Assembly (NCBI RefSeq): GCF_018398935.1
Contig: NZ_CP074694.1
Coordinates: 4,590,001-4,622,000, forward strand
Origin: Telmatocola sphagniphila
Lineage (GTDB): Bacteria > Planctomycetota > Planctomycetia > Gemmatales > Gemmataceae
Length of the DNA: 32,000 bases
Direction of reading: 5' to 3'
The translations under genes and the position numbers were made by a program. The notes below the pieces were generated by a model, which saw only the letters and a program-made list of their open reading frames with translations, made no database searches and was not told the DNA's origin. Position 1 is the first letter of the stretch. Every line of letters begins with the position of its first letter. Positions 576 to 21,141 of this stretch are shown here, piece after piece.

Positions 576-676
576 ATCACAAATCACAATATAACAAATC
601 AGCATATATTTATCGATTGACACTTGCCCACTAATTGTGCCAAGATGATTTTGTGTGCAATAAAACGCATTTTGGC

Positions 677-2378: not shown

Positions 2379-2434
2379 GAAATTCGGGCCGACACCATTT
2401 CGGATCGGCCTACGTATTGAAAAATTACTCGAAC

Positions 2435-3979: not shown

Positions 3980-4185
3980 TTCACACCTGGGTACGAGGAA
4001 TCGGGCCGTAGAATAAGTAATATTTTTCTATCAAATAATACCGATCCAATTGCAAATATTGTTTGAAGAATTGAGCACGTATCATTGGGACTGAATGATT
4101 CCGCAGGTTCGAGTCATTCGTGATTACATCGAAAAATTCAAATTAGAGGAAAGCAATCGCTTATTTCAGGCAATTCAATCGATTA

Positions 4186-5595
4186 TTAAAGCTCTTTCAG
4201 TTCAGGAAAAATCAAAAAGAGTGCGTGTGCATAATGTTCCGTGAGATGAACAGTTCCGTCTCTAAGAGCTCTTTTGACGCACAGCCCCGGTTGATCCTGT
4301 ACGGCTTCTCTTTCGTAAATGACCGGCTGAGGCTGTTGTTGAGTGGGCGTGGCCACTCGGGTGATATCGTCGATTAATGTGTCGATGGCTTTTTCGTTAC
4401 CCAAGCTCATTTCGAGTTCCAATTCGTTCCAGCGATTTCGCAAATTCACAAAATGTTTCTTGTCTCGCATCAGCAGTAGGATGTCGAGTACTTCGCTTCG
4501 ATCCCGACAGCGGTAAGCCTCGATTAGTTCCAAAAAGGCATTTTTCACCAAAAAGTTTTTGGCAAATCTCTGTTTGGAGAGAGCACTTTTTCTCCCGGCT
4601 AGGGCCAGCCGGATTGAGGATCGCACGGTATATGGCATTCGAATCGAAGCGGGAACGGAAAGGGAATTCAGATCGTACCACCAGCCCACGACAATGTGAC
4701 TCAAAGCGGTTCGGAGTAAGAATTCCTGCAACGCTTTTTTGTGATGCTTGGGGTACAGTTCCACCAGAGGAGCTAAAAGTGAATCGACGAATTTGTAGTG
4801 AATCGCTTTGGTCAGCTGGGCGTCTTGAAAAAATTCCGGTGTTTTGGCGAATACGAATTTCTCGAAATCTGCCGTTTTCTGAAGCACCGATTTATGGGTT
4901 CCCAAATAAAGGCGAGCTTCCCGCAAGATCCAGTCGTGCCAAATTTTCTTGTTCAAGGAGTAGGCATCGAACATGGCCATCATGTCCGATTGGAGGTTCC
5001 GACGATGAACGTGGTGGTTAAGAATCTCTTCGTGAGTGATTTGTTTAACGATCTGTTGCTCGTGATTTTTAAAAAGCGATGATAATTGCGTGGTGAGGAG
5101 TCGAGCGGGTGAATCCGTACCCGCGTTAGGCAACGCTGATGTCGTCCCGAAGCTATCGGAGTAGATGCTGGTAAACAGGAAATCTTCAAAGCAAGCGATG
5201 TAGGTGTTGCGGTTTTTAGTGCGTAAGGTCGAGGTGGCATCGCTGTCGAAGATCAATTCTCCCGCACATTGAAGAATGATCCCGTCGACGATCCAATGAA
5301 GACCGGTTTCGTCCGGACGCGGTTTTGCTACAGGTACTTCTCTAACGGGGACCGCTGGCTTCTGATCCTGTTCCGTCAAAAAATCTTCATAGACCTCGAG
5401 TGCCTCAGCTAATCTTTTGATGGAAGTAGCATCAGCGAATCCCGTTTTGATGATATTCGTTATGGTATTTTTCGAAAGTCCCGCTAAGTGGGTGAGTTCG
5501 GCTTGAGAGATTCCCCGGCAACACCGCAATTCTTCCATGCGTTTTACCGCGACTTTTATCCCTCGTTTTTTTCGTGGCGATTCGGGCTGAGTCAT
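4186..5595 (-). CDS. XRE-family helix-turn-helix protein with a large uncharacterised C-terminal domain
   Basis: The HTH is GISQAELTHLAGLSKNTITNIIKTG near the N-terminus. About 350 aa downstream has no motif I recognise. ATG at 5595 (MTQPESP) is preferred over the extended start at 5712. Confidence 0.7.
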   Translation of the reverse strand: MTQPESPRKKRGIKVAVKRMEELRCCRGISQAELTHLAGLSKNTITNIIKTGFADATSIKRLAEALEVYEDFLTEQDQKPAVPVREVPVAKPRPDETGLHWIVDGIILQCAGELIFDSDATSTLRTKNRNTYIACFEDFLFTSIYSDSFGTTSALPNAGTDSPARLLTTQLSSLFKNHEQQIVKQITHEEILNHHVHRRNLQSDMMAMFDAYSLNKKIWHDWILREARLYLGTHKSVLQKTADFEKFVFAKTPEFFQDAQLTKAIHYKFVDSLLAPLVELYPKHHKKALQEFLLRTALSHIVVGWWYDLNSLSVPASIRMPYTVRSSIRLALAGRKSALSKQRFAKNFLVKNAFLELIEAYRCRDRSEVLDILLLMRDKKHFVNLRNRWNELELEMSLGNEKAIDTLIDDITRVATPTQQQPQPVIYEREAVQDQPGLCVKRALRDGTVHLTEHYAHALFLIFPELKEL

Positions 5596-5715
5596 GATTT
5601 CCGGAGAAAAAAAATATTTTGGGATTAACTTGGGGTGTGCAAGCCCCCGACGTATGGGAAAACCAAATTCAGTGAAATTGGAACATCTGCTTCCTTTGAG
5701 ACTTCGAAGCAATCC

Positions 5716-6300
5716 ATGCGTGGCCGGTCAACCAAATCTCCGAAGCTCCCCTGCCTGAGTTATGATCAGGCAACCGATCTGATTGATCGGATCCAAAAAG
5801 GAGAGCACGATTTCACGCAGGGTTCGACATTAGCGATTCTGCTCCTACCCACGAAAACTTCGAGCAAAATTGTCTCGAAATTTAAGAAAAATTCACAGTC
5901 AATATCCCCCCCACGAAGGCAAAATATGCACTCGGATGATTTATTGAGTCTGGGAAAACCGGTACTGGATCACCTGGAAGAATTGAAGATTTTCTATCTG
6001 ATCGGGTGTGCGTATCAAGACCAGCGGAGATCCCTTCGAGATATTGCCCGAGAGTTCAGCAATCGGGATTGCCAGGGCCGACTTGCGGAAGGCATGCCGA
6101 CGAGTGCAAGCAAGCTATCGGTTGTCATCGCCGAACTCGAACGACAAGTCTTTGGTCCCTTTTTCAAATCCGAGTTTTTTTCACTTCTGGAATTTCCTCA
6201 AGGGCGGGGAAAATCCGCCGTTTTGAGTGAAATGGGGCAGCAGGCTTGGCAGCTGACGCGACAGTTCCTGAACGACTATTACGAACTGCCCGAGTGGTAG
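5716..6300 (+). CDS. Hypothetical protein, divergent from the XRE gene
   Basis: The ORF has plausible amino-acid composition and a possible HTH-like stretch (RSLRDIAREFS). The start is uncertain (5635, 5716 or 5926). Confidence 0.4.
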   Translation: MRGRSTKSPKLPCLSYDQATDLIDRIQKGEHDFTQGSTLAILLLPTKTSSKIVSKFKKNSQSISPPRRQNMHSDDLLSLGKPVLDHLEELKIFYLIGCAYQDQRRSLRDIAREFSNRDCQGRLAEGMPTSASKLSVVIAELERQVFGPFFKSEFFSLLEFPQGRGKSAVLSEMGQQAWQLTRQFLNDYYELPEW

Positions 6301-6392
6301 TCACTGGGAATCTCCATTTCTTAGGCGTGGAATCGATATTGCTTGACTTAACCGGGAAATAACCGCTTAATGTCGAATAGCAATTTCACAAT

Positions 6393-6803
6393 TTGTTCCC
6401 GATGCCCAAATCCGAAGTTCCCCTTGATTTCATCGATTATCAAGCCATACGATTTCCGAGCGATCAGATAACGATGCGGGACATTAGACGCGTCCATCCG
6501 GATCTTTTCGACGTTGAGGATGCACCTCGATTCCGAAAAATCGTCGATCAAAGCTCTTTCACGCTCGATTTGATTTTGTATTTAGAACGACTGCTAGCGC
6601 GGGCAGCGTTTGAGAAAGCCTTGGGCAAGACGGAAGACGTACTTCAGAGACGCGGGCTCGATCGGCAAGATTGCGTCGAGGAGCTGACTCAATTTTACGA
6701 AACCTATGGCATCGCGCACGCTCAGGGAAAGCATCAGGCAGAGGTATTGATCCAGAACATCGAATCTCAAGCTGCTTCTCAAGCAAGATCGTATTCGCGC
6801 TGA
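6393..6803 (+). CDS. Hypothetical protein
   Basis: The ORF has protein-like composition and no recognised motif. An alternative ATG lies at 6402. A weak hairpin (6803-6825) follows the stop. Confidence 0.45.
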   Translation: MFPMPKSEVPLDFIDYQAIRFPSDQITMRDIRRVHPDLFDVEDAPRFRKIVDQSSFTLDLILYLERLLARAAFEKALGKTEDVLQRRGLDRQDCVEELTQFYETYGIAHAQGKHQAEVLIQNIESQAASQARSYSR

Positions 6804-7122
6804 CTGTTCTTGATTCGGGAACAGTTCAACTCACTGTTTTCTTTTCAGAAACAGAATTTTCAGACCCCCCTCTGTGAACGTATAGTTCACGTAGCGATGG
6901 TGATTCGACAACTTTGAATTATTCGAAACGGATAGCTTAAAGCCGAATCGAAAATCGCAACAGGAGGATGAGCTCTCATCGGTTCAGACTTCTGCCCTGG
7001 GTTGGTTAAGTTCCCAAAGTTCGAGTAGGTAGCTCACCACTAGAAGTCGCGGTAAAACGCGTCGCGGGGAAGCTCTGCGCTTTGGGATGAGTGAATTTGG
7101 TACTAACGCGAGGAGGTGACGG

Positions 7123-7338
7123 TTGCGAAAGCGGAACGGGATCGAGGGAATCTCGGAAGTTCACGCTTTATTGTCCAGCGGCTGGGCAGATGTGGGTAAG
7201 CACTACTTCTTTGAGGACCAGATTGTGTTCGATGGGGTGATGCTGCTGTTCTTGGACGACTTTGTATTGGTCTTGATCTTAGTGTGGCTGCGGATCTTCA
7301 GGAAGAAAAGCACTACCGGTGAATACCGGGGCGCTTAG
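7123..7338 (+). CDS. Possible small membrane protein
   Basis: The TTG start is preceded by GAGGAGG. The sequence has a hydrophobic C-terminal half (VMLLFLDDFVLVLILVWL). It has no homology that I can recognise. Confidence 0.25.
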   Translation: MRKRNGIEGISEVHALLSSGWADVGKHYFFEDQIVFDGVMLLFLDDFVLVLILVWLRIFRKKSTTGEYRGA

Positions 7339-7352
7339 CACTTATTGAATCT

Positions 7353-7380
7353 CGAGTCGGAACCGTGCGCGGCTCCGACT
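7353..7380. repeat. 12-bp stem hairpin (one mismatch, TGCG loop) in the ParB upstream region
   Basis: GAGTCGGAACCG-tgcg-CGGCTCCGACTC, read directly. Confidence 0.6.
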
Positions 7381-7428
7381 CAAATCGCCCTTGCAGGAAC
7401 TTACTCAAGAATCTCCGAACGTACGCCG

Positions 7429-7446
7429 GACGCTGATTTCAGCGTC
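7429..7446. promoter_or_regulatory. 18-bp palindrome, candidate operator or parS-like site immediately upstream of the ParB-like gene
   Basis: GACGCTGA-tt-TCAGCGTC is a perfect dyad about 20 bp upstream of the AAGGAGG Shine-Dalgarno at 7467-7473. Confidence 0.45.
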
Positions 7447-7477
7447 GCAGGGATTCTTCGTGCTTTAAGGAGGCAAT

Positions 7478-8329
7478 TTGACCGGAATTATGCAACCGAA
7501 ACAAGAACATCCTCTGGAATTCGGTTTGGTCGACGCGGAGAGCTTGATTGTCGATCCGCGCGAGGCCGAACGGCATCTGAGTTCGCCGGAATTCCCGGCC
7601 TTGGTGGAGAGCGTACGCCGGGACGACATTCTGCAGCCGCCGGGCGTCCTGCGGAATCTCCAGGTGGCTTTCGGTACTGGCCGAGTTTTGGCTAAACGTA
7701 AGGCCCGACCGGGCGAGCGCATTTTGGTCTGCTGGCTGCAGGAGTCGATGTCGGAGGCGCAGTTCAACCTTCTGAAATGGGTGGAGAATATGCGTCGCCA
7801 AAACTGGACTCCGACCGAGCAAAGCGACCGGCTTTTTGATCTCAAGCAACTGCATGCGGATCTCAACCAGAAGCAGCTGAGTGATCTGGTGGGACTAACC
7901 CCGACTAAAATCTCGACTCTTCTGGCGGTCTTCAAATGTGCTCCCGAGGTGCAGAAGCTCTATCGGGAAAACCTGCTGACCCCGAGTGATTGTGCCGAGC
8001 TAGCCCAGTTGCCGGTGGAAGTGCAACGCGCCCTGGCCAGCCAACGAGCGAGTGGAGAGATCCTCAATCGCGAGGCCTTGAAGAAGCTTCGCATTCAGCA
8101 TCAGACCTCCGAAACGACGACCGTGAAATCGTCGCGCGTTCGCATGCAGATCGGAGGAGTTCAAATCCTGGTTACGGGAAGCTCGGTCTCCGTGGAAGAT
8201 CTGTCGGAACTCTTCAAAACCGGGCTGAATCACTGTCGTCGTGCGGAAAAAATGCGCTGGGATATTCGCACGCTGGAACGGGTTCTCGGCGATGAAAATC
8301 GGAAGGAGGATCCTCATAGCGAAATTTAA
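7478..8329 (+). CDS. ParB-like (ParB/Srx N-terminal domain) partition or nuclease-family protein
   Basis: The ParB-N-like segment is LIVDPREAERHLSSPEFPALVESVRRDDILQPPGV. The HTH-like segment is LSDLVGLTPTKISTLLAVF. A strong SD lies upstream of the TTG start at 7478. Confidence 0.7.
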   Translation: MTGIMQPKQEHPLEFGLVDAESLIVDPREAERHLSSPEFPALVESVRRDDILQPPGVLRNLQVAFGTGRVLAKRKARPGERILVCWLQESMSEAQFNLLKWVENMRRQNWTPTEQSDRLFDLKQLHADLNQKQLSDLVGLTPTKISTLLAVFKCAPEVQKLYRENLLTPSDCAELAQLPVEVQRALASQRASGEILNREALKKLRIQHQTSETTTVKSSRVRMQIGGVQILVTGSSVSVEDLSELFKTGLNHCRRAEKMRWDIRTLERVLGDENRKEDPHSEI

Positions 8330-10208
8330 TCGGGCAGTTTTGGTTCTGGCCGTCCTGGTCCCGTTCGGTACCGGCTTCGTTTTTTTGATTCGGTTATTAC
8401 CGCCGCCCTTGGTTTTGTTCTTCCTGATTTGTTCGGTCGTTCGACTCAAACGGGTCAGCCCCAGTCTCTGGGCGATGGGGACTGCAAGATGGTCGAACCA
8501 TCAAGACCATCAGCGAGCCGGAATGCTCGAGCCCAACGGCGGGATCATCCTGGGTCGCAGTAGTACCAGTCGTTCACCGCCGCTGCGGGAGGCCATCCGG
8601 GGATTATTCGATCCCTACCTCGATGACGAAACGGCTGTGAATCGGGTGTTGCCGCTCGGACGCAAACGGTGGCAAGTCGAGAGCCAGAACACCTGGGTGC
8701 GAATGCCTCGCTGGGTTCCGCACACCGTAATTTTTGCACCAACGGGCGCTGGCAAAAATGTGTCCATCGCTTCGCCCTTCCTGTTGACCTGCCCCGACAG
8801 TTGCGTCGTGGTCGACTACAAGGGGGAGTTGGCCCGAGACCTAGCGGAATTTCGGAGAAGGCGATTTGGGCATCGGGTGGTTTTGCTGGATCCTTGGCGA
8901 CTCTGCACCGATCAGCCGGACATGCTCAATCCGCTCGATTTTTTCGACGGGCAAGATCCGGAGGTTTTGCAGGAGGCTCTCGACCTGGCCGAGGCCTTGG
9001 TGATACGGACCGGCAAAGAGCATGATCCCCACTGGGCCGATTCGGCCGAGGTGCTCCTGACCGCTCTGATCGTGGCGGTGGCCTTCTTTGCCCCGGAAGC
9101 GGAACGGAATCTCCAAAGCGTTCGCGAACGCTTGATCGATCCGGAGAAGTTTCAAAGTGCGATCCAGGCTTTGTGTGCCTCGGACGCTCTGGGGGGTCGA
9201 TTGCGGCGGTTTGGCCATCAGATGATGGCCTATCGGGATAAGGAGCTGGGATCGGTACTGACAACGGCGAATCGAAGCCTTCGCTTCTTGGATTCCCCGG
9301 CGGTTGGGGAGAGCATGCGGGTGTCGAGTTTTGACCCCGCAGAAATCCGCGAGCGGACAACGGCGTTTTTGATTTTACCGCCAACACATCAGAGGACGCA
9401 ATCGCCTTTGATGCGTTGCTGGCTGACCTGCCTGATACGGGCGGTGGTGAAAGGAGGTTTGCAGGAGAAAAATTTCGTCCACTTTGTTTTGGATGAAAGT
9501 TCGTCCTTAGGACGGATGGACATCTTGATTGACGCGGTCGAAAAATTTCGGGGCTATGGACTGAAATTGCAGTTCTATCTGCAGTCGCTGGGCCAGCTTA
9601 GGCAGCACTATCCGGACGGTTTGGATCTCACGATTTTGTCGAACACGGCGCAGATTTTTTTCGGAATTAACGAGCCGACCACGGCTGATTTTGTGAGTTC
9701 GCGACTCGGGGATGCGACCATCTGGGTGGAGAGCCAAGGCGATGGCGAGGGGAATGGAGTCTCCTCGGGCCGGGGGGGCGTGGAAGGCCGCAACCGAACG
9801 TTCAACACGAGCCGGAACTTCAACCAGCAGTCGAGACGGCTGGCCCGACCGGATGAGCTGATGCGATGGTCGAATCGGATGGCGGTGACTTTTGTGCCCG
9901 GGCTGCCGCCGATTAAGACTCGATTGCTGCGCAGCTACGAGGAGTTGGAATTGTACGAACCTCGCCCTCCTCGGAAGTATGCGAAGTGGCCGTTGGTAGC
10001 GCAGTCGTTAGCGACGTTAATTGCTTCCATCGTGATGGTGGCCTTTGTGGTCGATGTGCTGACTGACAATCAGCCTCGCACCTATCGGACCCGGACGATG
10101 ATGCCCACGGAAGCCAAAAAAGCCGCTTTGCCGAATCAGAAGACCGGCCAAGCACTCAAGGGCGGGAATACTTCCCGACCCGTATCGCCGAAGTCTTCGA
10201 AACGCTAG
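8292..10208 (+). CDS. Type IV secretion coupling protein (VirD4/TraG/TraD family)
   Basis: Two N-terminal hydrophobic segments are present. The Walker A is FAPTGAGKNVS. The Walker B region FVLDESSSLGRMDILIDAVEKFRGYGLKLQFYLQSLGQL is typical of T4CPs. The start is ambiguous (GTG 8241 or ATG 8292) and overlaps the end of the ParB-like gene. Confidence 0.85.
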   Translation: MKIGRRILIAKFNRAVLVLAVLVPFGTGFVFLIRLLPPPLVLFFLICSVVRLKRVSPSLWAMGTARWSNHQDHQRAGMLEPNGGIILGRSSTSRSPPLREAIRGLFDPYLDDETAVNRVLPLGRKRWQVESQNTWVRMPRWVPHTVIFAPTGAGKNVSIASPFLLTCPDSCVVVDYKGELARDLAEFRRRRFGHRVVLLDPWRLCTDQPDMLNPLDFFDGQDPEVLQEALDLAEALVIRTGKEHDPHWADSAEVLLTALIVAVAFFAPEAERNLQSVRERLIDPEKFQSAIQALCASDALGGRLRRFGHQMMAYRDKELGSVLTTANRSLRFLDSPAVGESMRVSSFDPAEIRERTTAFLILPPTHQRTQSPLMRCWLTCLIRAVVKGGLQEKNFVHFVLDESSSLGRMDILIDAVEKFRGYGLKLQFYLQSLGQLRQHYPDGLDLTILSNTAQIFFGINEPTTADFVSSRLGDATIWVESQGDGEGNGVSSGRGGVEGRNRTFNTSRNFNQQSRRLARPDELMRWSNRMAVTFVPGLPPIKTRLLRSYEELELYEPRPPRKYAKWPLVAQSLATLIASIVMVAFVVDVLTDNQPRTYRTRTMMPTEAKKAALPNQKTGQALKGGNTSRPVSPKSSKR

Positions 10209-10217
10209 AGGAGAGAA

Positions 10218-10496
10218 ATGTCGAGACAAAATCGCGAGCGGATCGCCGCTCTGGGGGAAAAGGAAGAAAAGCCTTTCGATTGGAAGGCGATTTTCGAACG
10301 CTTTGTTCGAGAAGTGGATGCCGAATTCCGACGCCTCGGCTCACATGGAGCTTCGGAATTGGCAGCCAGTTTGTACACCGGTTCAGCGTTTGTTCTTTAC
10401 GGTAAGGAACGCGAACAGCTCAACGAGGTTTCGCGGATCAACGAGCAGTTCCGCGAGATCGAACGCCAGCAAGAGGAATTGCAGCGTGGTCTTTAA
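10218..10496 (+). CDS. Hypothetical coiled-coil protein
   Basis: The ATG is preceded by GAGGAG. The composition is charged and helical (EQFREIERQQEELQ). Confidence 0.5.
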   Translation: MSRQNRERIAALGEKEEKPFDWKAIFERFVREVDAEFRRLGSHGASELAASLYTGSAFVLYGKEREQLNEVSRINEQFREIERQQEELQRGL

Positions 10497-10557
10497 CTGG
10501 GGATGGGATTCACACGCGGGGTGTGATGAACATAGTTTCTTTTTGGGGGATAGTTCA

Positions 10558-10776
10558 ATGCGTTTTCCGATTGTGCCTTTGATTAGTACGGTCTGTGCGG
10601 CATTGGGTCTGGGCGGACTCTACTGGTACTACCAGCTGAGTAAAGAAGAGCAGCAAGAGGCGGATCGAATCGCCATGGGCTACGCCCGTAGCCTTTACAA
10701 CAAGACGGTCGAGGAGCTGACCTCCAGCGAGATCGACAAGATCCGGGCTCTCACCAAGAGCCACTTCAGCGCCTAA
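10558..10776 (+). CDS. Small single-TM membrane protein
   Basis: The ATG follows a GGGGGA motif. The hydrophobic N-terminus is IVPLISTVCAALGLGGLYWYY. A hairpin (about 10808-10826) lies downstream. Confidence 0.5.
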   Translation: MRFPIVPLISTVCAALGLGGLYWYYQLSKEEQQEADRIAMGYARSLYNKTVEELTSSEIDKIRALTKSHFSA

Positions 10777-10918
10777 TGCTCAGGCGCTGATCGTCAACCT
10801 TCGGGCTCCAGGGGTTCAAAGCCCCTTGGGCCTTCTTCCACAAACAATCTTCGTAGCAGCGGTGCTGGATCTCTTCCGATGAGGGACTTTCCGGCCTGCT
10901 TTCTGGGAAAGGGGTTTT

Positions 10919-11191
10919 ATGGTTATTGCATCCGTTCATTTGGACACTGAACAGCCAGGGAGAACCTTACGCGAAACCAAGATCGAGATCGCCTGCTCCG
11001 GAGCGAACGTGGCGATGGATTATCTGGAGGGGGACTATACCCCGCAACAGCGGAAGGAAATCCGCCGAGCGATTCGGCGGGGAATCCTGAACGGGATCTT
11101 TGTCTATAGCGATCTCCTGCGGGCGCGAGCCCAGGAATCGGCGAACACCTATTCGGTCTGCCGTTTGGGACTGGGAGGTGATAATGACTAG
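10919..11191 (+). CDS. Hypothetical protein
   Basis: The ORF has an 8-nt overlap with the downstream excisionase-like gene. No recognised motif. Confidence 0.4.
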   Translation: MVIASVHLDTEQPGRTLRETKIEIACSGANVAMDYLEGDYTPQQRKEIRRAIRRGILNGIFVYSDLLRARAQESANTYSVCRLGLGGDND

Positions 11192-11471
11192 TGCGGAGCC
11201 ATTGCTCTCGCAGATCCTCGAGCGGCTCGATCAGTTGCAAATCGGCCTCGATCAACTGGTCGAACGCGAGAAGATCAAAGAGTGGTACACCACCGAAGAA
11301 CTGGCCAAAGTCGTCGGCAAGGCGGAATTTACCGTCCGCGAGTGGTGTCGGCTGGGTCGCATCAAAGCCCAGAAGCGACAGAGTGGCCGGGGCAAGTTCC
11401 TGGCTTGGGTGGTCTCGCACGAGGAGCTTCTGCGATTCCAGCGGGAGGGGTTGCTGCCTCTGAAGAACTGA
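11184..11471 (+). CDS. Excisionase-family / MerR-like HTH DNA-binding protein
   Basis: EWYTTEELAKVVGKAEFTVREWCRLGRIKAQK matches the excisionase-family HTH pattern. It is the last gene before the compositional break. Confidence 0.65.
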   Translation: MTSAEPLLSQILERLDQLQIGLDQLVEREKIKEWYTTEELAKVVGKAEFTVREWCRLGRIKAQKRQSGRGKFLAWVVSHEELLRFQREGLLPLKN

Positions 11472-11506
11472 CTTGTGGTTCACTTTTTTCCATTCTATGT
11501 GTCGCA

Positions 11507-11545
11507 TCCTTCTACACATTCACATATCCCGAATGTGTAGAAGGA
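11507..11545. repeat. Perfect 15-bp inverted repeat (9-nt loop) at the element/island junction
   Basis: TCCTTCTACACATTC-acatatccc-GAATGTGTAGAAGGA, read directly. It lies 36 nt after the excisionase-like stop, and no U-tract follows. Confidence 0.7.
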
Positions 11546-12538
11546 GAATGCGCTTACGCGTGACGAATCTGCCAGTGAACCAGCTTCTATCAATATCTTC
11601 AGCCATTTTTGGGCAAAATTCCTGCGGGGTAGTGAAAATTGCTCTCTTCCCTGGTTTTCATTACCAACGTACATCGCTTAGAGATTTTCGAATTCGGTTA
11701 ACTCTACCTTTACGGGCGCAAGAGAGATGTTGCTGACTTACAACGAGACGAAAAATCCGAACCAGACAAGATCGTAATTAGGCTTAGGCTGAACTACTGC
11801 TTCTCCAGTAGCCAACTTCGTTTCAATTGATTCAAAAAATGCAGAAATCGTCGAATATTTTGAACTTAAGGCAAGTTATTCATCCAAGTGAGAGGTAGCG
11901 GTGTGAAATTCCTAATGCTCAGCTCAAAAGCTCGAGTCGCGATTTTAAAGGCAAATTAATAAAACTATTGGTTGACGATGAAGTCGAAAATAATTATAAA
12001 TTTGTTTGATTGTAAGCAGTATTTCTCACATGGGTTCCAACCCCCAAAAGGAACATTATCGTGATTGAGGCACCTTTGGTCGGATCATTTCTTCAGGAAA
12101 AATCGACGTCAGAAATATTTTTCGCATCCGTCTATTTCAATTTTCCAGATCTAAATGACCAAGCTCTGACGATTCCAACTTACTATGAACTGTTGGCGAT
12201 ACTAGAAACGAGGGCTCAGTAGCTGAGGACGTTTGGTTTTTCTTCTAATTTTTAAGGGAAATGCTACAAGCTATGGTGAACGCGACGTGTGAGGATTTTA
12301 ATAATCGTATTCAGAAGAACCAATTGGTAAACCATCTATTTCCTCGAGTTCAATACTTATCATAATCTCAGATTGTTCCACTGCTACTAACTCTATATTC
12401 TTGGTGGGAGATTTTTCCATTAAAACACAAGATGTATATTATCTTTAGTATTTTTTTCTAGAACCGCTTATCATGACTAGATTTAAAAAGATGCCATCTT
12501 TCGTTCTCTTTTCCTGAACTGAACACTGAGTGAACTTA

Positions 12539-14065
12539 ATGGATACACCTAGCCTAATTTTGCCCTGGGATATAGTTAAACACTCACTTTGTTCAAGTGA
12601 ATTTACTCTGCGCCTAAGGTTAGAAGACTTGGGGAATTCCGATGCGGGTTTGACTAAATGGCTAGAATCTTATAAACGATCAAACTCAAATGAGTCGTCT
12701 TTACCTTCAAATGATCCACGATCCTGGAAAATATATTCTCACGATACAGAGTTGAAAATTATTATTAACGATTCTGGAAATAGTTATGAATCTCATGGTA
12801 GGGCTATCTTCACTCGAATGCGTTGTGGTGAGCAGGTCAGCTTGACCTATCGCCATCTTGGCAAACCAATAATAGTGTCCGATAAGAGAATTTACTTCTT
12901 GCCAAAGAAAATTGATACTAATACTAGGAAATTGATAGAACAACAAATAGAGAATAATGATCTTGAAGCAGAAAATTCGCTAAAAGATCTGACCGCAAAA
13001 TTTAAGCAGCTCGATGATATCGAAGTAGATAACGACATTATAAACCTATTCAATTATCTGAGTTCTCAACCAAAATGCGAAGATGATTATCTACTAAGTT
13101 TTGCTGAATTGCACAACTTCGTTTTTCGACGGCTCCAATCGCGAGGAGATCAAACACTTCCACAGGGACTTTTAATTATCTCAGGAGCCACAAAGTCTGG
13201 TAAAAGTGAGATGTCTCGGGCTCTGATCGCAAGGTGGCTGATACAAGCTCGGTGTGAAAAAAAAGGGTCAGGCTTTCGAAATCCCCATCTACTTACAATT
13301 GAAGATCCGATCGAGAAGCCTCTGTTTAATGAAAAACACACAGATGAAAGTCTCTATCAAAAATACGGGATAGATTACACACCACGACTCATAGGGGTAG
13401 ATTGTGCAAGCGTAAGAAATGTGCTGAATGATGCTCTAAGGCAAACCCCTTCCATCGTTTACATTGGCGAAGTGCGCGGTGGCGATGATTGGAGTGCGAT
13501 TCTCGACTTCGCCGCAACCGGCCATTTCGTTGTTGCCACTGCTCATGCGTCGAGTTTAACCGAAACATTTTTAAGAGTTTTTAATGCGATCGGGGTAAAA
13601 AAACCATCTGATTTCATACAGTATGCACAACGTATTTTTGGTATTGTGAGTTTACGCTCAATTTCTGCAATCGATTTCAAGTCTGGGATTTATCGCTCCG
13701 AGGGCAAGAAAGAATCGACTGTAAAGAAGCTAGGTAATTCTGTTATCGTGCCTTCCTTGTGGCGTAATACTAACGAGGCGATCGCCAAACTTGCAGGCGA
13801 TGGATTAGCATCGCTCTTGCCCTTTAGGCATGGAGTGCCAAATGATTGGACTAAAGCGACCGCATTGTCCGGTACCCAGGGTCGAGCGAGCTGTCTCGAG
13901 TGGTTACTGGCATACCATCTATCTAATGAACCGATGAAATCTTGGATTTACTCGAATAAAGAAAATCTCAATTCTGTTACAAATTTTTCTAAGGAAGAAC
14001 TTAAAATAATCTTAGCATCTCAATGGCTCAGAAGAGCCATTGCGCTTGACCTCGAAGGAACTTAG
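12539..14065 (+). CDS. PilT/VirB11/FlaI-family (type II/IV secretion-type) hexameric ATPase with a unique ~210-aa N-terminal domain
   Basis: The Walker A is GATKSGKS (nt 13184-13207). The Asp-box-like motif is HLLTIEDPIEKPL. The Walker B region is LRQTPSIVYIGEVRGGDDW. The His-box-like motif is GHFVVATAHASS. The start is GTG 12530 or ATG 12539. Confidence 0.8.
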   Translation: MDTPSLILPWDIVKHSLCSSEFTLRLRLEDLGNSDAGLTKWLESYKRSNSNESSLPSNDPRSWKIYSHDTELKIIINDSGNSYESHGRAIFTRMRCGEQVSLTYRHLGKPIIVSDKRIYFLPKKIDTNTRKLIEQQIENNDLEAENSLKDLTAKFKQLDDIEVDNDIINLFNYLSSQPKCEDDYLLSFAELHNFVFRRLQSRGDQTLPQGLLIISGATKSGKSEMSRALIARWLIQARCEKKGSGFRNPHLLTIEDPIEKPLFNEKHTDESLYQKYGIDYTPRLIGVDCASVRNVLNDALRQTPSIVYIGEVRGGDDWSAILDFAATGHFVVATAHASSLTETFLRVFNAIGVKKPSDFIQYAQRIFGIVSLRSISAIDFKSGIYRSEGKKESTVKKLGNSVIVPSLWRNTNEAIAKLAGDGLASLLPFRHGVPNDWTKATALSGTQGRASCLEWLLAYHLSNEPMKSWIYSNKENLNSVTNFSKEELKIILASQWLRRAIALDLEGT

Positions 14066-14069
14066 GCAC

Positions 14070-17000
14070 ATGGCAATTAACGAGCGAAAAAGCAGTAGAT
14101 TGAGATTCGGGATTTACGAACTTGATTATCTCTTGAATAAGGACAATCGTTGTGTTTTTGCTGAGTCGGTGACGGCGATGAATTCTCAAGAAGACCTCCC
14201 ACCGGAACCTAAAGAAGTTCACTCAACAGCCCCAGACACCAAACCTGCACTAGGATGTCTTGAGATTGAGGCCGTGAACTCGGGATGCATGAGCCTCTGC
14301 ATCTTAGGACCCGATGGGACTGGCAAATCCCTTTTGGCTTTACACCTCGCTAACCATTACTTGGTTGATGCTAAAACAATTGGAAATTGCCAGCCTTTGG
14401 CGCTCTATTTCTCGACGGATCTCTCTCAGTCCCAAGCTGAGACTTCGTGGAAAGCATTTGCTCTGGACAATCCTCAACTCAGGTGGGAAGAGCTACCATC
14501 CTTTGCTAAAGGATCGGACGGTGAAAAACCTACACTGAACAACATTGGGTTTCGCGGGGTGAAACCATTTCTAGAGCACGACGGATCTCATAACAGCCTC
14601 CTAAGCTCACTTTGTGTGGGGAATCTGCCTTCCGATCCTATTGAGTTGTTTTTTTTAGACAGTCAGGCTAAACCATGCGGCGATGACTGGCTATATTTGA
14701 GTCGTTTTATAAGTACTTTACCTCTTCCCTCAGGTGACAGTTGGCCCCATCTTTTATTGATTGATGCAGTCGAAGGGTTAGAACCCGCTTTCGGTCGTCG
14801 TGATATATTCGGGCATGAGTCGGCAGGCCGAACTCGTCTAGCGCAATTGATTCGTGCGGCTCGAGAAAAGTGTCATATTGTATATGTTGTCGAGGAGCCA
14901 AGGCCAGGAGAGACTCTAGATACGCAATATGTTACAGACGTCGTAATTCGTCTGACAGTTGAAAAGACGGGTAATTATTCTCATCGAACAATTGAGGTCG
15001 AAAAAGCCAGAGGTGCTCAGCACATTCGCGGACAGCACGATTTTGCGATTCGATCTGGTGTTGGCTCTGCAACGGGTGAGCAGGTGAATGCAGACGATCC
15101 TAAAGTTCCTCGGCTCAAAAATACTCATAGAGAAAATATCGCTTACATGCATGTAATGCGATCACTACATTCAATGAGTAGACAGGTGCTCGAATTACCC
15201 TCAGGAGAAACGCCTGACATCAACCCAAGACGAGACAAAGTTTATGGGTTTGGGATCAAATATCTGGATAGCCTTCTTCCAAGAGTCGAGAGTAGTCAGG
15301 GAGACGAAAGAACAAATGGCTTGATCGGCGGTACGGCCTCAGCTCTCATTGGACCTTTAACCACACACAAGAGTCGTCTAGCGCGAGCGTTTTTAGCTCA
15401 AGTTTTGCCCGATGGTCTGGATGATTATCTTGAATCGCTTGAATCCGGGAAGCAACCTTCACTAAAGCCCACTATCAAAGAACTAGGAGTATTAATCTCG
15501 ACTCAAAGAGTGGACCGATCTGTACTTTTCCGAACTGCATGGCAGCATCGTTTTGGTAAACCATTTGCAGCGAAAGACACTGCGCAAGCCGTCCGACATA
15601 CAACGAAATTGATCGAAGATAATTTGTGTCCGTTTATCGTACGCAGGCTTGAAGTTCATCGCTATTCGTCGCAAGGGATAGTACATGTAATCAAAGAGTC
15701 CATTCAAAGTGCTCAGCAGCAATTACTCAATCTTAGTGATCCATCAGGGAACTTATATAAAGTTGAGGTAAAAGAGAAACACGGAACAACGAAGACACGC
15801 GAAATTTGTCGTAATATAAGATTTGTGTTCGATGATTGGCATGTCTTTCAAGATACTTTTCCCGAAGCTGCGCAAGATCCCATGCTGCTACCACACATTT
15901 TTCACTTCCTTAGTCGCCAAGGCATCACGGCACTTTTTCTCGACACTGAACCTGGCATTCCATTAATGCCGGACGCACATTCTGATGTTACGCTCCGAGC
16001 TTTGGCTTCAAGACACTTATATACATGGCTTGTGCCATTTTACGGAGAACGAAGGATTGCAATAACGACAACACCTCCTGCTGCATCAGGAGTACCTTCC
16101 CCAATATTCGAACTTAGGCCACGTAGAGTCGAGCAAAGTACACAGTTTGAAGACGAACAATTGATTGTTGATCCTCACTTTGAAATGTACACAGGCTTGG
16201 AATCTTCAGATATCAAAAGAGTAGCACTAAAAGTGATCCTTTATAACGGTGCAAAGAAAAAGTCCGACGAGGAGCCTATTGAAGGAGAGTACATCACAAC
16301 AATTCGCCAACTGATGAGTGACCTATTCGGGAATGAGGATCACTCGACACTCGAAACGGTCGACAGTGCAGGATACGATCGGATGCGGGATTACGTCTAT
16401 CTGCAAGATGGAACTCGCCTAGATCATACTTTAGTTATGCAAGTTGATGAATTCTGGTCGGAGAGCATCCCGTCGTTAGCAGACTTGACAGATTATATGA
16501 ATGATGAAACCGACATCAATGAAAAAGAATTAAGTGATATTGAAGATCCATCTCGGCTTCGTAGGGGACAGAGGAGTCGATTGGAGGTATTTAATGTTGT
16601 CACAAAAAAATTTAAGAATGACTACAATTTGTATTTCAACAAAGAGAAAAAACCACTTCGAATAGACAAGGTTCCATTTCTTTGGGATTTTGGCTTCTTA
16701 TTAGCAAATCGTGAGCAGTGGCTCTCCATAGCAAAATCGCAACCAAACTCATCAGAGATTTGGTCGGCTCTTTCGGTATTTGAACTCAATTCAGGTGAAT
16801 ATCATAAAAAACTGGGATCAGAGAAAGACAGATATATTAGTTGGTATCAGTTCTTCGGCATATGTGAACTCGCTCGGAGTCGAGGATATATCCCTTTTGA
16901 TATCGACTTGCAAACATCAGAAGTTCTCTCCTGTTTAGTCCTTGAAGTTTGGTGCTCGATTTTGCTCGATTTGCGTATAAAACTGCCAGATCAGATACTT

Positions 17001-17849
17001 AACGGCATTAGACATGATGAAGCAACTATGTCGACAGGACTAGTCGAATTGATCGATCTTAAAGATGAAAAAGGTGTTAAATGCGGTGAACTGGCATTGG
17101 CATTGGCGTTACAACTCATTTTTAGTAACCTTCCAAAAATGGAAATTGAGGGCGGCTCTTTTGTATGTCGCCCTGCAAATCCGAATGCGTTTACTGCGAG
17201 ACACTATTATTCGACTGCTGCTCGAAAAAACTATAACTCCGGCCGTTTAGTTCCACTAAAGCTGCCGGGATGGTTCTCTGTTCGTGGTGATTGGTTTTTA
17301 GGGCTCGCAAAAGGAAGTCGGTCACCTCGGCTTGGCTTAAGAGCTATGGACTTATTATGTAGTACCAGAGGCAATTTTGAACGACTCAGAGCAGGAATTG
17401 GATTACCAGTACGCGAGATCTTGAGTGATGATAGTGTAGGTTCTGTCCGAACTGCGCTCGTGGCTCCATGGAAAAGTGATTTGACTCCCAATATGGATAT
17501 TGGACATATCACACTGGAAGCGCTTTATGCCATCGCACCTGACAGCAATCCTTCAGAACCCAATAAACCACAGTTCAACTTTCTCTGGCGATCTTTGCTG
17601 CAACACTACGATCAGACATCCAGGCGATTTCACAGATGGTTAGGACGAATGTACCTTATGCATGACGCATGGAGAATTCATTTCAAAGCATTAGAAGACT
17701 CTTGTTGGAAGGATCTTGGATCTTTACAAGATGGAATAAGCAATGCTATCAAAGACATTGAAGAGCAGGAACGGAACAAAAAAACCGAGGATAAATTTTC
17801 CACTCAAATAGAATTACTACGCTCGATGTTAAAGCAAGGAATAGATTAA
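14070..17849 (+). CDS. Giant KaiC/RecA-like ATPase: two tandem KaiC-like domains plus a C-terminal solute-binding-protein-like region
   Basis: Domain 1 has RLRFGIYELDYLL, Walker A GPDGTGKS (nt 14307-14330), Walker B HLLLIDAVEGLEP and the KaiC-like tail RTIEVEKARGAQHIRGQHDFAI. Domain 2 has YGFGIKYLDSLL and a degenerate P-loop GPLTTHKS. The C-terminal half has segments resembling family-1 SBPs (VMQVDEFWSESIPSLADLTDYM and GDWFLGLAKGSRSPRLGLRAMDLLCS). The ATG at 14070 lies 4 nt after the upstream stop. Confidence 0.8.
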   Translation: MAINERKSSRLRFGIYELDYLLNKDNRCVFAESVTAMNSQEDLPPEPKEVHSTAPDTKPALGCLEIEAVNSGCMSLCILGPDGTGKSLLALHLANHYLVDAKTIGNCQPLALYFSTDLSQSQAETSWKAFALDNPQLRWEELPSFAKGSDGEKPTLNNIGFRGVKPFLEHDGSHNSLLSSLCVGNLPSDPIELFFLDSQAKPCGDDWLYLSRFISTLPLPSGDSWPHLLLIDAVEGLEPAFGRRDIFGHESAGRTRLAQLIRAAREKCHIVYVVEEPRPGETLDTQYVTDVVIRLTVEKTGNYSHRTIEVEKARGAQHIRGQHDFAIRSGVGSATGEQVNADDPKVPRLKNTHRENIAYMHVMRSLHSMSRQVLELPSGETPDINPRRDKVYGFGIKYLDSLLPRVESSQGDERTNGLIGGTASALIGPLTTHKSRLARAFLAQVLPDGLDDYLESLESGKQPSLKPTIKELGVLISTQRVDRSVLFRTAWQHRFGKPFAAKDTAQAVRHTTKLIEDNLCPFIVRRLEVHRYSSQGIVHVIKESIQSAQQQLLNLSDPSGNLYKVEVKEKHGTTKTREICRNIRFVFDDWHVFQDTFPEAAQDPMLLPHIFHFLSRQGITALFLDTEPGIPLMPDAHSDVTLRALASRHLYTWLVPFYGERRIAITTTPPAASGVPSPIFELRPRRVEQSTQFEDEQLIVDPHFEMYTGLESSDIKRVALKVILYNGAKKKSDEEPIEGEYITTIRQLMSDLFGNEDHSTLETVDSAGYDRMRDYVYLQDGTRLDHTLVMQVDEFWSESIPSLADLTDYMNDETDINEKELSDIEDPSRLRRGQRSRLEVFNVVTKKFKNDYNLYFNKEKKPLRIDKVPFLWDFGFLLANREQWLSIAKSQPNSSEIWSALSVFELNSGEYHKKLGSEKDRYISWYQFFGICELARSRGYIPFDIDLQTSEVLSCLVLEVWCSILLDLRIKLPDQILNGIRHDEATMSTGLVELIDLKDEKGVKCGELALALALQLIFSNLPKMEIEGGSFVCRPANPNAFTARHYYSTAARKNYNSGRLVPLKLPGWFSVRGDWFLGLAKGSRSPRLGLRAMDLLCSTRGNFERLRAGIGLPVREILSDDSVGSVRTALVAPWKSDLTPNMDIGHITLEALYAIAPDSNPSEPNKPQFNFLWRSLLQHYDQTSRRFHRWLGRMYLMHDAWRIHFKALEDSCWKDLGSLQDGISNAIKDIEEQERNKKTEDKFSTQIELLRSMLKQGID

Positions 17850-17852
17850 TCG

Positions 17853-18269
17853 CTAAAAGCTTCTGCCAGACATGATCTTCGTCTGGTTTTTTTCAGATAG
17901 CAGCTCTTTCGAGGCGGCGTCAAACGCTTCCTTCGATGCTTCTGAAAAATCCTTGAGATTGCTACAGTGCCTTCTATAGACGGCCTCCATGGATCCTTCG
18001 GTTGAAACTGTAATGTCCCATTCACGCGGCTTATGTCTCCAACGAGAACACCAACCCCTGACTAAAGGTTTAGTTTCGCCAAAGTCAAATACTAGTCCGT
18101 CATCTGCTGTCTTAAAATTTGGTTTTTGGTTGATTGATGGCTCTGCATTATAAAAAGCCGTGATCATAGCTCTGACGGCATCTAAATATTCGATCCCCGT
18201 CGCAGTCCCCTCCTGAACGGGACCACTATTTTCTCTGGTTGCATCAACTTCATTCATAACTTCCTCCAA
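17853..18269 (-). CDS. Hypothetical protein, convergent with the KaiC-like gene
   Basis: This is a 138-aa ORF with protein-like composition. Its stop lies 3 nt from the stop of the 14070-17849 gene. It shares the AT-rich composition of the island. Confidence 0.5.
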   Translation of the reverse strand: MEEVMNEVDATRENSGPVQEGTATGIEYLDAVRAMITAFYNAEPSINQKPNFKTADDGLVFDFGETKPLVRGWCSRWRHKPREWDITVSTEGSMEAVYRRHCSNLKDFSEASKEAFDAASKELLSEKNQTKIMSGRSF

Positions 18270-18509
18270 GTTTAGACTAGTATTTATCGCTAATACACCG
18301 CTAAGGGAATTTCTCCAAGCACTATTTCTAAAATCGGTTTTATTTCTGTTCCAATATGATTTTATCTGCAGTTTTGCTGCAATAATAGGCCATGTGATTG
18401 AAATATACCTAGAATGGACGTAGGTACGAAAATTGCCATAAGTAACTTAAATAACTGGATTTGCAGTGCGAACAAGTTGCGAAGCTAATGTGACTGAAAG
18501 TGGTCTTAA

Positions 18510-18566
18510 CTAGCCTCAGGAGCTAGTCCTCGCAAGGGGGTGCAGGTTCAACTCCTGTCCTCGGCA
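18510..18566 (+). tRNA. tRNA-Leu(CAG)-like 3' portion (anticodon arm, long variable arm, T-arm, 3' acceptor strand). It is probably a truncated or pseudo-tRNA acting as an integration scar.
   Basis: The anticodon stem-loop is CTAGC-CTCAGGA-GCTAG (U33, anticodon CAG, G37). The variable arm is CCTC-GCAA-GGGG. The T-arm is GCAGG-TTCAACT-CCTGT. The 3' acceptor is CCTCGGC plus discriminator A. The required 5' acceptor GCCGAGG and a foldable D-arm are not found upstream; only a loosely similar GCGAAGC...GAAAGTGGT occurs at 18479-18509. Confidence 0.55.
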
Positions 18567-18582
18567 TCTCAATTAACGAAAA

Positions 18583-18611
18583 GGCCTGCGGTTCCTACCG
18601 CGGGCCTTTTT
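18583..18611 (+). terminator. Rho-independent terminator downstream of the tRNA-like sequence
   Basis: GGCCTGCGG-ttccta-CCGCGGGCC is followed by TTTTT. Confidence 0.75.
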
Positions 18612-18824
18612 GCATTTCGGGAATCCCCAATTCCAATTCGTCCGGTGAAATAATAACAAACTTTAGAATTGAAAATATTTATCTGGACAGCCCAGCCTAG
18701 TTCCCCCTCCTATTTCCTCAAAACCGGCAAATTCAACCCATTCCCAGTCAATTTTTCGTTCTCTAAAGCCCGATTTACTTTGAAGTTTCGAATAATCGCT
18801 ATTTTCCGGTTAGGAGGGAGAGAA

Positions 18825-19706
18825 GTGAACTTTCCGGCTCTGTTACGAACGACTCATTTTTGGATGATAGGTTTCTCGCTGGCTCTTGCTACAGGCTGCA
18901 GTAGCACGGGCAATTCGGTGAACCCCTTCGCTCAGGATCACAAGATGATCGACTCGGCGAAAGAGCTCCGATATACCGGTGTGGCCCCCCTGCCCCGCGA
19001 ACTGAACAAACAGCCGCTCGAGGCTTACGTCGTTGAACCTGGGGATGGATTATTGATCCTTCCTGCCGAGATCGATTCGACGATTCGGGTGCCGAGCGAT
19101 CAGACCGTTTTGCCCGATGGCACCATCGATCTGGGTCGGTATGGCCGTCCGCAAGTCTCCGGGCGAACTCTGCCGGATATCGAGAAGATCGTGAATCAGA
19201 CGGTCAAGGCTCAGTCGAATGCTCCGGAACCGGGCAAATCGAACCTTTTGACGGTGCGATTGGTAAACCGGGTTAGCAAGGTTTACTACGTACTCGGAGA
19301 AGTGAACACGCCGGGCGCCTACCCGATTCAAGGTCGCGAAACGGTGCTGGACGGAATTCTGGCCGCGGGTGGGCTGAACAGCAAATCGTCGCGCAAAAAC
19401 ATCATTCTGGTACGGCCCAGCCTGCCGGAAGGTTGTCGAACGGTGCTGGCGGTCTGCTATCCGGAGATCGTACAGTTGGGAGACACTTCCACGAATTACC
19501 AGTTGCAGCCGGGCGATCGCATTTATGTCTCGAGTAAATGTTTCTTTGAAGGTGTTTTCCACAAGGAGCCTTGCGTGACCTGCACCGGTCCACAGCGTTC
19601 CTGCGATTTCGCTGGAGGAGCTTGTGGCGCACCGGCCGCCACTCAAACACAGATTGGTAGCGCGGCTGTCCCCCCAAACCCCATGCCGACGCAGTTACCT
19701 CGCTAA
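18825..19706 (+). CDS. Polysaccharide export outer-membrane lipoprotein (Wza/Poly_export + SLBB domain family)
   Basis: The GTG start at 18825 lies 7 nt after AGGAGG. The lipobox is LALATGC. The Poly_export-like segment is YVVEPGDGLLI. The SLBB-like segment is YYVLGEVNTPGAYPIQGRETVLDGILAAGGLN. Confidence 0.8.
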   Translation: MNFPALLRTTHFWMIGFSLALATGCSSTGNSVNPFAQDHKMIDSAKELRYTGVAPLPRELNKQPLEAYVVEPGDGLLILPAEIDSTIRVPSDQTVLPDGTIDLGRYGRPQVSGRTLPDIEKIVNQTVKAQSNAPEPGKSNLLTVRLVNRVSKVYYVLGEVNTPGAYPIQGRETVLDGILAAGGLNSKSSRKNIILVRPSLPEGCRTVLAVCYPEIVQLGDTSTNYQLQPGDRIYVSSKCFFEGVFHKEPCVTCTGPQRSCDFAGGACGAPAATQTQIGSAAVPPNPMPTQLPR

Positions 19707-19723
19707 GAAATGAATTTCGCATA

Positions 19724-19747
19724 CTTCCCTCGGACGACCGGGGGAAG
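19724..19747 (+). terminator. Probable intrinsic terminator after the export gene
   Basis: CTTCCCTCGG-acga-CCGGGGGAAG forms a 10-bp stem with one G-U pair, followed by ATTTCATTT. Confidence 0.5.
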
Positions 19748-19968
19748 ATTTCATTTCGCATAAAGAATCGGAAGACCTGAATTATTCAACTATTAATGAG
19801 CATACCATTTCGCAGATTTGAGTAATTTAAGACTTAAAGATCTTTATAGTTCCGGCAAAACACTTCCATTCTAATTCATAAAGCCCATCTATTCTCCCTG
19901 AATCGCTTGGCATATCAATTGCAATCGCTCGAATAGGACTTCTCGGTTAATTCGAATGGATTTCACTC

Positions 19969-21141
19969 ATGAGAGCGCTGTGCTGGTACGGAAAAGGCGA
20001 TGTACGAGTCGAAACGGTTCCTGATCCGAAAATTCAGGATCCGAGGGACGCCATTATCAAAATTACCACAAGCGGCATTTGCGGGTCGGATCTCCATTTG
20101 CTCGATGGCTACATCCCGACGATGGAAAAAGGGGATGTTCTGGGCCATGAGCCGATGGGTGAAGTTGTGGAAGTTGGCCGGGAAGTCCGCAATTTAAAGA
20201 AGGGGGACCGGGTAGTCGTTCCCTTCACCATCTCCTGCGGAAGCTGTTTTTTCTGCCGAAAATCGCTTTACTCCTGCTGCGATAATTCGAATCCGAACGC
20301 CAAGATTGCCAAGCAATTGATGGGACACTCCCCCGCCGGGCTATTTGGTTATTCGCATATGCTCGGCGGCTTTCCCGGCGGTCAGGCAGAATATCTTCGA
20401 GTGCCCTTCGCCGATGTGGGGCCATTGAAGATCGATTCGGATCTTCCCGACGACAAAGTGATTTTCCTCTCCGATATTTTCCCGACGGGTTATATGGCAG
20501 CGGAGAATGCTCAAATTGAAGCGGGTGATACCGTGGCCGTCTGGGGGTGTGGCCCGGTGGGGCAAATGACGATTAAGTCGGCCTGGATGTTCAAAGCGGC
20601 CCGGGTGATAGCCATCGATTGCGTGGAAGAGCGTTTGGAACTAGCGCGAAAAGAAGGCCGGGCGGAAACGATCAACTTCGAAAAGGAAGATGTCTACGAA
20701 CGCTTGCAGGCGCTGACGGCCGAGCGTGGTCCAGATCGTTGCATCGACGCCGTGGGATGTGAAGCCCATGCGGCAGGCACGCTGGGCAACGTCATGGATA
20801 AAGTAGCTTCGCAGGTGAAGGTGACGCCGGATAAATCCCACGTACTCAACCAGACCATTATCAGTTGTCGCAAGGGGGGCACGATATCGGTGCCGGGCGC
20901 GTATGGCGGCTTTCCGGATAATATCCCGTTCGGGGCATTTATGAATAAAGGGCTGACTATGAAAACCGGTCAGACCCACATGCAACGTTATATGAAACCG
21001 CTGTTGCAGAAAATTGAATCCGGTGAAATCGATCCCTCCTTCGTGATCACTCATCGCGTACCTTTAGAGGAGGCTCCCGAAGCTTATAGAAAGTTTCGCG
21101 ATAAAAAAGATGGGTGTATTAAAGTTGTGTTGAAGTTTTAA
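19969..21141 (+). CDS. Zinc-dependent alcohol dehydrogenase (MDR family, formaldehyde/threonine dehydrogenase-like)
   Basis: The catalytic zinc motifs are GICGSDLH and [13 protein letters not shown] structural-zinc Cys cluster is present ([15 protein letters not shown]). The Rossmann motif is VWGCGPVG. Confidence 0.9.

Follow-up and report, generated by a model that had tools for sequence, protein, structure and literature searches.

What does an ATPase of the PilT/VirB11 superfamily do when its gene has no platform, pilin, or secretin gene of a pilus or secretion system nearby? To our knowledge, nearly all described ATPases of this kind are motors that drive pili, secretion systems, archaella, or DNA transfer. 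The question was raised by a gene in a 32,000-nucleotide stretch of the Telmatocola sphagniphila genome (contig NZ_CP074694.1, positions 4,590,001 to 4,622,000; here called the window). The gene (12539..14065, forward strand) encodes a protein of 508 aa, counted from the ATG at 12539 to the TAG stop at 14063-14065; the same open frame offers a GTG at 12530 as another possible start. It is followed on the same strand by a gene for a giant double KaiC-like protein (14070..17849), which has 1,259 aa from the ATG at 14070 in a frame open from a TTG at 14040. As judged from sequence comparison and gene order, the two genes appear to constitute a previously undescribed, horizontally mobile two-enzyme module.

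All four hallmark boxes of PilT/VirB11/GspE-type ATPases, which had been pointed out together with the open reading frame when the bare letters were first examined (hereafter the sequence-only reading), were located in the 508-aa frame. These were Walker A GATKSGKS (aa 216-223; 13184-13207), the Asp box TIEDPIE (aa 253-259; 13295-13315), Walker B IGEVRGGDD (aa 309-317; 13463-13489), and the His box ATAHASS (aa 333-339; 13535-13555), all on the forward strand. They lie within an ATPase core (aa 208-380; 13160..13678, forward strand) that was delimited by Pfam and NCBIfam matches and the family alignment; Pfam T2SSE (PF00437) matched aa 208-355 with 56.6 bits (gathering cut-off, 24.9). The best NCBIfam match was pilT_fam (TIGR01420), with 70.5 bits against a cut-off of 319.1, and the three genuine PilT-family proteins of the host scored 350-432 bits against the same model. 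The scores for TraJ (51.6 bits vs. 368) and DotB (47.2 vs. 463; models TIGR02524/TIGR02525 for the two), FlaI (26.2 vs. 550), and TadA (16.3 vs. 373) were far under threshold, as were those for every other equivalog (ComGA, GspE, PilB, VirB11, and TrbB). When a profile of the family was searched against PDB sequences, PilT ranked first (101 bits), followed by PilU (90), DotB (84), GspE (59), PilB/PilF (approximately 50), FlaI (38), VirB11 (33), and CpaF as the weakest (26). An AlphaFold2 model of the ATPase, built from a 54-sequence alignment (pLDDT 79.6, pTM 0.83), matched PilT4, DotB, and PilU in Foldseek at E values of about 1e-14, in alignments that exceed the length of the targets.

A maximum-likelihood tree of the ATPase core (IQ-TREE, LG+C20) was built from 50 family members and a set of references, which comprised the three PilT-family, four PilB/GspE-type, and one TadA-type ATPases of the host genome, YggR, GspE, and HofB of Escherichia coli K-12, PilQ of IncI, and TraJ from a Bordetella pseudohinzii plasmid. 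In this tree, from which four family rows were dropped because a P-loop regular expression missed them, which has no FlaI or VirB11 among its references, and in which the long stem of the family meets the likewise long TadA outgroup branch, the family formed a single clade (support 91/80, 92% of bootstrap trees, stem length 2.0) with none of the references inside. PilT/PilU/YggR, TraJ, PilB/GspE, and TadA/CpaF were all placed outside, the TadA-like protein of the host being the most distant row. The sister of the window ATPase was a protein from a metagenome, 48% identical over the core, and copies from Pirellulaceae grouped elsewhere, which fits horizontal acquisition. The sequence-only reading had taken the protein for a divergent ATPase outside the assigned subfamilies, and the low scores and the separate clade bear this out; neither Tad/CpaF nor DotB membership, the assignments that would have spoken for a known system, was found. 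By these comparisons the window ATPase would belong to a separate clade that had no name before and has the PilT/PilU/DotB-TraJ branch as its closest neighbor.

The pairing of the ATPase with the KaiC-like giant was found far beyond the window. Here, the partner ATG lies 4 nt after the ATPase stop, and a Shine-Dalgarno-like hexamer (GAAGGA, 14053..14058, forward strand) is located within the last ATPase codons, 11 nt before the partner ATG. The hexamer and the short spacing suggest translational coupling, and the two proteins are probably co-translated. Among metagenome contigs carrying relatives of the ATPase, all three had a KaiC-like gene (1,239-1,470 aa) directly downstream. A further 44 genome loci were retrieved by means of the giant protein; 39 of them had usable upstream sequence, and in 37 of these a family ATPase frame abutted or overlapped the start of the giant on the same strand. 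The conserved KaiC-like neighbor that had been anticipated from the window alone was thus recovered, and the proposed lack of partners fails once genes other than secretion genes are considered, with this conserved giant beginning 4 nt after the stop. All-against-all clustering of the open reading frames (ORFs) at 48 loci revealed no conserved third gene. In addition, pairwise identities of the ATPase and of the giant were correlated over 26 loci (r = 0.83; none of 2,000 permutations was equally high), which indicates co-inheritance of the two proteins and not binding.

The giant itself contains a first KaiC-like domain with the Walker A motif GPDGTGKS, a second one with a degenerate P-loop, and a C-terminal extension of approximately 570 aa, for which no sequence matches were found. 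A Pfam KaiC hit was obtained in all 20 members of the partner family tested, and the partner-family profile matched two stretches of KaiC, the cyanobacterial clock ATPase, with 55.8 bits. Unlike KaiC, the window partner has no KaiA or KaiB genes present and carries the added C-terminal region.

The N-terminal part of the ATPase (aa 1-207, approximately 207 aa) had no match among Pfam, NCBIfam, or PADLOC models, in agreement with the impression that it resembles nothing recognizable. The related claim that this domain is unique did not survive a profile search. A word-indexed search yielded 24 relatives of the ATPase, whose BLAST alignments span the core only, and a conserved N-terminal core was derived from an alignment of these 24 relatives and 37 homologues at genome loci. 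When a profile of the N-terminal region (alignment A4) was run against 1.84 billion representative proteins, 350 clusters carrying the same domain were retrieved at E≤1e-3, 117 of them at E≤1e-10. The domain was N-terminal in all 150 listed hits, mostly proteins of 360-650 aa, and the Asp box EDP[IV]E was present in 121 of the 128 hits that were at least 350 aa long. Because hits to an N-terminal-only profile sit at the N-termini of the same kind of ATPase, the domain marks one family; it is the signature of a rare yet sizeable ATPase family.

The conserved elements of the N-terminal core are, in order, a DFTFY strand, a second strand, an arginine hairpin, a "Y.P" stretch, and a helix preceding the P-loop. 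In the window protein, the DFTFY strand corresponds to EFTLRL (aa 21-26), and the hairpin, with the consensus GRxLxCxxxxGxxxSxTxR (alignments A3 and A4), to GRAIFTRMRCGEQVSLTYR (aa 87-105). The hairpin arginines R88 and R105, which lie on consecutive strands, were invariant across 54 sequences. Spacing among the core elements ranged from approximately 120 to 350 aa across the family, the length of the N-terminal part varying because of insertions between them. The modeled protein follows this arrangement. It begins with a beta-rich alpha/beta domain (aa 1-110; 12539..12868, forward strand; pLDDT 60-92), the probable equivalent of the N2 domain of PilT-like ATPases. A lineage-specific insert or linker of 76 aa rich in D, L, I, K, and N (aa 111-186; 12869..13096, forward strand), modeled as low-confidence helices at 120-185, separates the arginine hairpin from the helix before the P-loop (aa 187-207; 13097..13159, forward strand), which is confidently modeled at 188-199. 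The insert was short or missing in most relatives, with a column occupancy of 0.44 and no conserved columns. The ATPase core, at 210-376 in the model, and a helical C-terminal region complete the layout.

In PilT-like ATPases, the N2 domain packs on the ATPase domain of the adjacent subunit and supplies two arginine fingers, which are positioned on the last strands of N2. Two such fingers are completely conserved throughout PilT-like ATPases (PMC5424180). The family was aligned with 34 PilT proteins using hhalign, with an overall probability of 99.9%, and in global and greedy modes the DFTFY strand fell on PilT "SDLHi," the arginine hairpin on PilT "gRFR.nvF.qrG....vlR," and the pre-P-loop helix on the PilT linker helix "LGlP..v." In hhalign runs restricted to the N-terminus, the best local match was always this same hairpin on the PilT N2 strands, although weak (E 0.2-0.3). 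The sequence-only reading had this region replace the usual N1/N2 or PAS-like domain; what emerged is a core shared across the family, whose two invariant arginines align, non-significantly, on N2 strands. We consider it somewhat probable that aa 1-110 represent a strongly diverged N2 equivalent with variable inserts rather than a replacement.

Conservation across the family was lowest in the N-terminal part. The (near-)invariant residues among 54 members were K222, E255/D256/E259, R283, R301, G310-E311, H329/H336, and the two hairpin arginines, with R283 and R301 invariant. The C-terminal region (aa 381-508; 13679..14062, forward strand) contains family-specific conserved motifs, namely SLWRNT (W408), GDGLASLLP (G422), and the terminal LDLEGT (D504). 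In the profile alignment, the AIRNLIRE motif of PilT was not present there. The initial proposal located the specificity determinants in the N-terminus; judging by conservation, they are at least as likely to reside in the C-terminal 130 aa (W408, G422, R449, and D504-L505) as in the poorly conserved N-terminal part.

Compared with characterized systems, PilT and PilU (TIGR01420; PDB 6ojx, 3jvv, and 9n32) share the superfamily fold and the four boxes and gave the best profile and structure matches. Like them, the window ATPase lacks an N1 domain and a zinc finger and is laid out as N-terminal domain, linker, and ATPase domain. Unlike them, it has an N-terminal domain unrecognizable by sequence, the insert of approximately 76 aa before the core, a family motif "L..DGL.SLLP" standing opposite PilT "air.LIRe.K," no nearby pilus genes, an obligate KaiC-like partner, and a separate clade. 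DotB and TraJ, of type IVB secretion and IncI transfer (PDB 6geb and 6gef), were second best in both profile and fold, and are set apart by their scores, by the position of TraJ outside the clade, and by the lack of conserved type IV secretion genes near the window ATPase. DotB is a PilT-branch ATPase that forms a soluble hexamer docking onto another ATPase ring (DotB-DotO). The archaellum pair ArlI-ArlH (FlaI-FlaH) offers a parallel: there, a hexameric ATPase of the PilT/VirB11 superfamily acts together with a KaiC-like ATP-binding protein whose gene is adjacent to its own. A preprint on this pair (bioRxiv 10.1101/2021.03.19.436134) describes the interaction of the KaiC-like ArlH with the ATPase as dependent on the nucleotide or phosphorylation state. 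ArlI is a member of the FlaI/GspE2 branch, whereas the window ATPase scored far below the FlaI cut-off; ArlH is a small single-domain protein, whereas the window partner is a tandem KaiC protein of approximately 1,260 aa that includes a long C-terminal extension; and partners in the membrane and the filament belong to the archaellum, whereas the window module has none.

Taken together, we moderately favor the interpretation that the ATPase is a soluble hexameric motor of the PilT/VirB11 superfamily with an N2-like domain, docked on its KaiC-like partner and working outside pili and secretion. Given the conservation of its motifs, it would be catalytically competent. The N-terminal approximately 110 aa would pack against the ATPase domain of the neighboring subunit, with R88 and R105 as the putative arginine fingers. 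The motor would serve no pilus or secretion machine and would instead be the dedicated partner of the giant double KaiC-like protein, on which, by analogy with ArlI-ArlH and DotB-DotO, it may dock ring on ring. The KaiC-like protein may then gate the motor, or may be remodeled by it.

Several results weigh against this interpretation. Comparisons of the N-terminal domain with PilT N2 by hhalign in local, greedy, and global modes, with 39- and 182-sequence alignments, gave E values of only 0.2-0.9, and hmmsearch yielded no match in either direction. In the structure search proposed in the sequence-only reading, an alpha/beta domain was modeled from the N-terminus alone (pLDDT 70.5), and no significant fold neighbor was found in Foldseek, the best match being an unrelated designed protein (E 0.015), with several PAS domains and two DotB entries among the weak neighbors. 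Because the profile, hmmsearch, and Foldseek comparisons lack significance, N2 homology is something that we infer. Further, many relatives carry A, S, or C in place of the second glycine of Walker A (GxxxxGK[ST]; G221 in the window protein), e.g., GATKSAKS and GATRSCKS, a substitution that is unusual among PilT-like ATPases; they retain the lysine and the serine after it. Finally, the giant occurred without a PilT-like gene at two loci, both from Myxococcales, which implies that it can exist lacking this partner.

At a Myxococcales locus from a metagenome-assembled genome (MAG) (L025:9711-15196), and also at L022, the gene for the giant converges on that for another KaiC-like giant (1,225 aa), which is more distantly related. 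Directly upstream of this second gene, and overlapping it by 4 nt, lies a gene for a 603-aa protein with an HD-CE domain (PF24391), in the position otherwise taken by the ATPase. This variant may reflect exchangeable upstream partners.

The pair resides in an island of low G+C content (11560..18500; 0.37-0.47, compared with 0.49-0.57 in the flanks). Among 61 relatives, the family ATPase was found in two, both from one family and one of them the genome of the window, and among 301 genomes sampled from the phylum only in that of the window; this search scored six candidates per genome, and absence means not found in those searched. The loci represent Acidobacteriota, Planctomycetota, Armatimonadota, and Myxococcota, together with a small number of MAGs of Pseudomonadota, and in the tree the Pseudomonadota copies were nested among those of Planctomycetota and Acidobacteriota. 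Because of the low-G+C island and the patchy distribution, the pair is regarded as an accessory, horizontally moved cassette. No family copy was present in 72,556 plasmid and 50,697 phage records, where only distant core matches of at most 33% identity were obtained.

Upstream of the island, the window contains genes for a tyrosine integrase (1362-2378), a ParB-HTH protein (7478-8329), a VirD4/TraG-type coupling protein (8241-10208; 2.3 kb upstream of the ATPase gene), and an HTH_17 excisionase-like protein (11100-11471). From the integrase through the HTH_17 gene (1362-11471), they form a mobile-element-like block that adjoins the island, and no relaxase or mating-pore gene was identified among the ORFs scanned. 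The compositional break between the two is sharp (element, 0.54-0.57; island, 0.37-0.47), and the four genes were not conserved at the other loci compared, except for a related integrase at two of them (L015 and L026). Just past the integrase gene, a gene on the reverse strand (2435-3979) encodes a 514-aa tyrosinase/PPO1_DWL/DUF7868 protein, which may be cargo of the element. No convincing direct repeats of an attachment site were found within 1-20000, and neither ARAGORN nor Rfam (gathering threshold) detected a tRNA in the window or at the island edge. Inside the island, an orphan ORF of 138 aa (17853..18269, reverse strand) is convergent with the KaiC-like gene, the two stops being 3 nt apart. 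It had no Pfam, NCBIfam, or PADLOC match and no counterpart at 47 other loci compared; because it is not conserved beside the pair elsewhere, it is probably outside the module. A terminator-like hairpin was observed at 18590-18606.

In the 6.59-Mb genome, hits to the pilus platform domain T2SSF were located at 2.48, 2.74, 2.92, and 4.547 Mb, the nearest being approximately 55 kb from the ATPase gene (4.6025 Mb). The main type IV pilus ATPase cluster of the host (4546940-4554423, approximately 50 kb upstream) comprises two PilB-type genes and one PilT-type gene beside a T2SSF gene; the host thus owns conventional motors. The statement that the window ATPase has no secretion partners holds with respect to the platform genes and has to be qualified for the VirD4/TraG-type coupling protein, which lies only 2.3 kb away and is part of the compositionally different element not conserved at other loci.

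The proximity of a mobile element invites another explanation, in which the pair is a conflict system against phages or mobile elements, with the KaiC-like giant as sensor and the PilT-like ATPase as effector or power unit (e.g., through ATP depletion, or polymer extraction or translocation). We regard this as rather doubtful. The island directly adjoins the element with its tyrosine integrase, ParB-like, VirD4-like, and excisionase-like genes, related integrases occur near the pair at two other loci and a transposase at a third, the operon is compact with two genes, its distribution is very patchy and crosses phyla, and the HD-CE hydrolase gene in the upstream-partner position in Myxococcales resembles partner swapping. 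However, PADLOC-DB 2.0 gave only a 27-residue P-loop match to mad8 (E 0.004) and no hit for the partner, a toxic effector domain was not recognizable, and the plasmid and phage records contained no copies. Moreover, the 118 flanking ORFs from 40 loci, examined with Pfam and PADLOC, were mostly housekeeping or metabolic genes with a handful of defense-model hits. A literature search found no paper tying PilT and KaiC to anti-phage function, nor anything linking the two with defense or gene neighborhood in bacteria, and for "HD-CE" only unrelated medical papers were retrieved. A more specific form of this idea is put forward tentatively: the giant would sense a ligand or infection cue via its C-terminal domain and license the PilT-like hexamer, the pair acting as a signal-gated two-motor machine, e.g., an immune module, that works on a cellular polymer or burns ATP. 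Other effectors could then take the upstream "motor" position, as the HD-CE variant suggests.

That the ATPase is an accessory motor of the retraction or extension type, which couples to the type IV pilus platform of the host and has the KaiC-like protein as its sensor and switch, is unlikely. PilT and PilU are its nearest characterized relatives, PilT was present in all 41 sampled genomes of the phylum, and the host genome has three PilT-family and four PilB/GspE-type ATPases and four platform-gene loci. Against this stand the low pilT_fam score, the replacement of the AIRNLIRE region by family-specific motifs, the separate clade on its long stem, the 55 kb to the nearest platform gene, and the absence of adjacent pilus genes at all 40 loci. 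A role as a VirB11/DotB/TraJ-type traffic ATPase of the neighboring conjugative or mobilizable element is largely refuted and highly improbable, since the nearby coupling protein and ParB-like gene and the relatively good TraJ and DotB matches in NCBIfam and PDB are outweighed by the G+C break between element and island, the occurrence of the coupling protein at none of 47 other loci compared, unlike the KaiC-like gene, the exclusion of TraJ from the family clade, and TraJ/DotB scores of about one-eighth of the cut-offs.

A soluble motor docked on a KaiC-like partner thus remains the interpretation that we favor. A clade without pilus or secretion machinery that is tied to a giant KaiC-like protein would widen the functional range of the PilT/VirB11 superfamily, and the pair would be the bacterial equivalent of ArlI-ArlH, a pairing that is itself poorly understood. 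The module spans hundreds of soil and aquatic lineages and, because it moves horizontally, probably confers a selectable, previously undescribed accessory trait.

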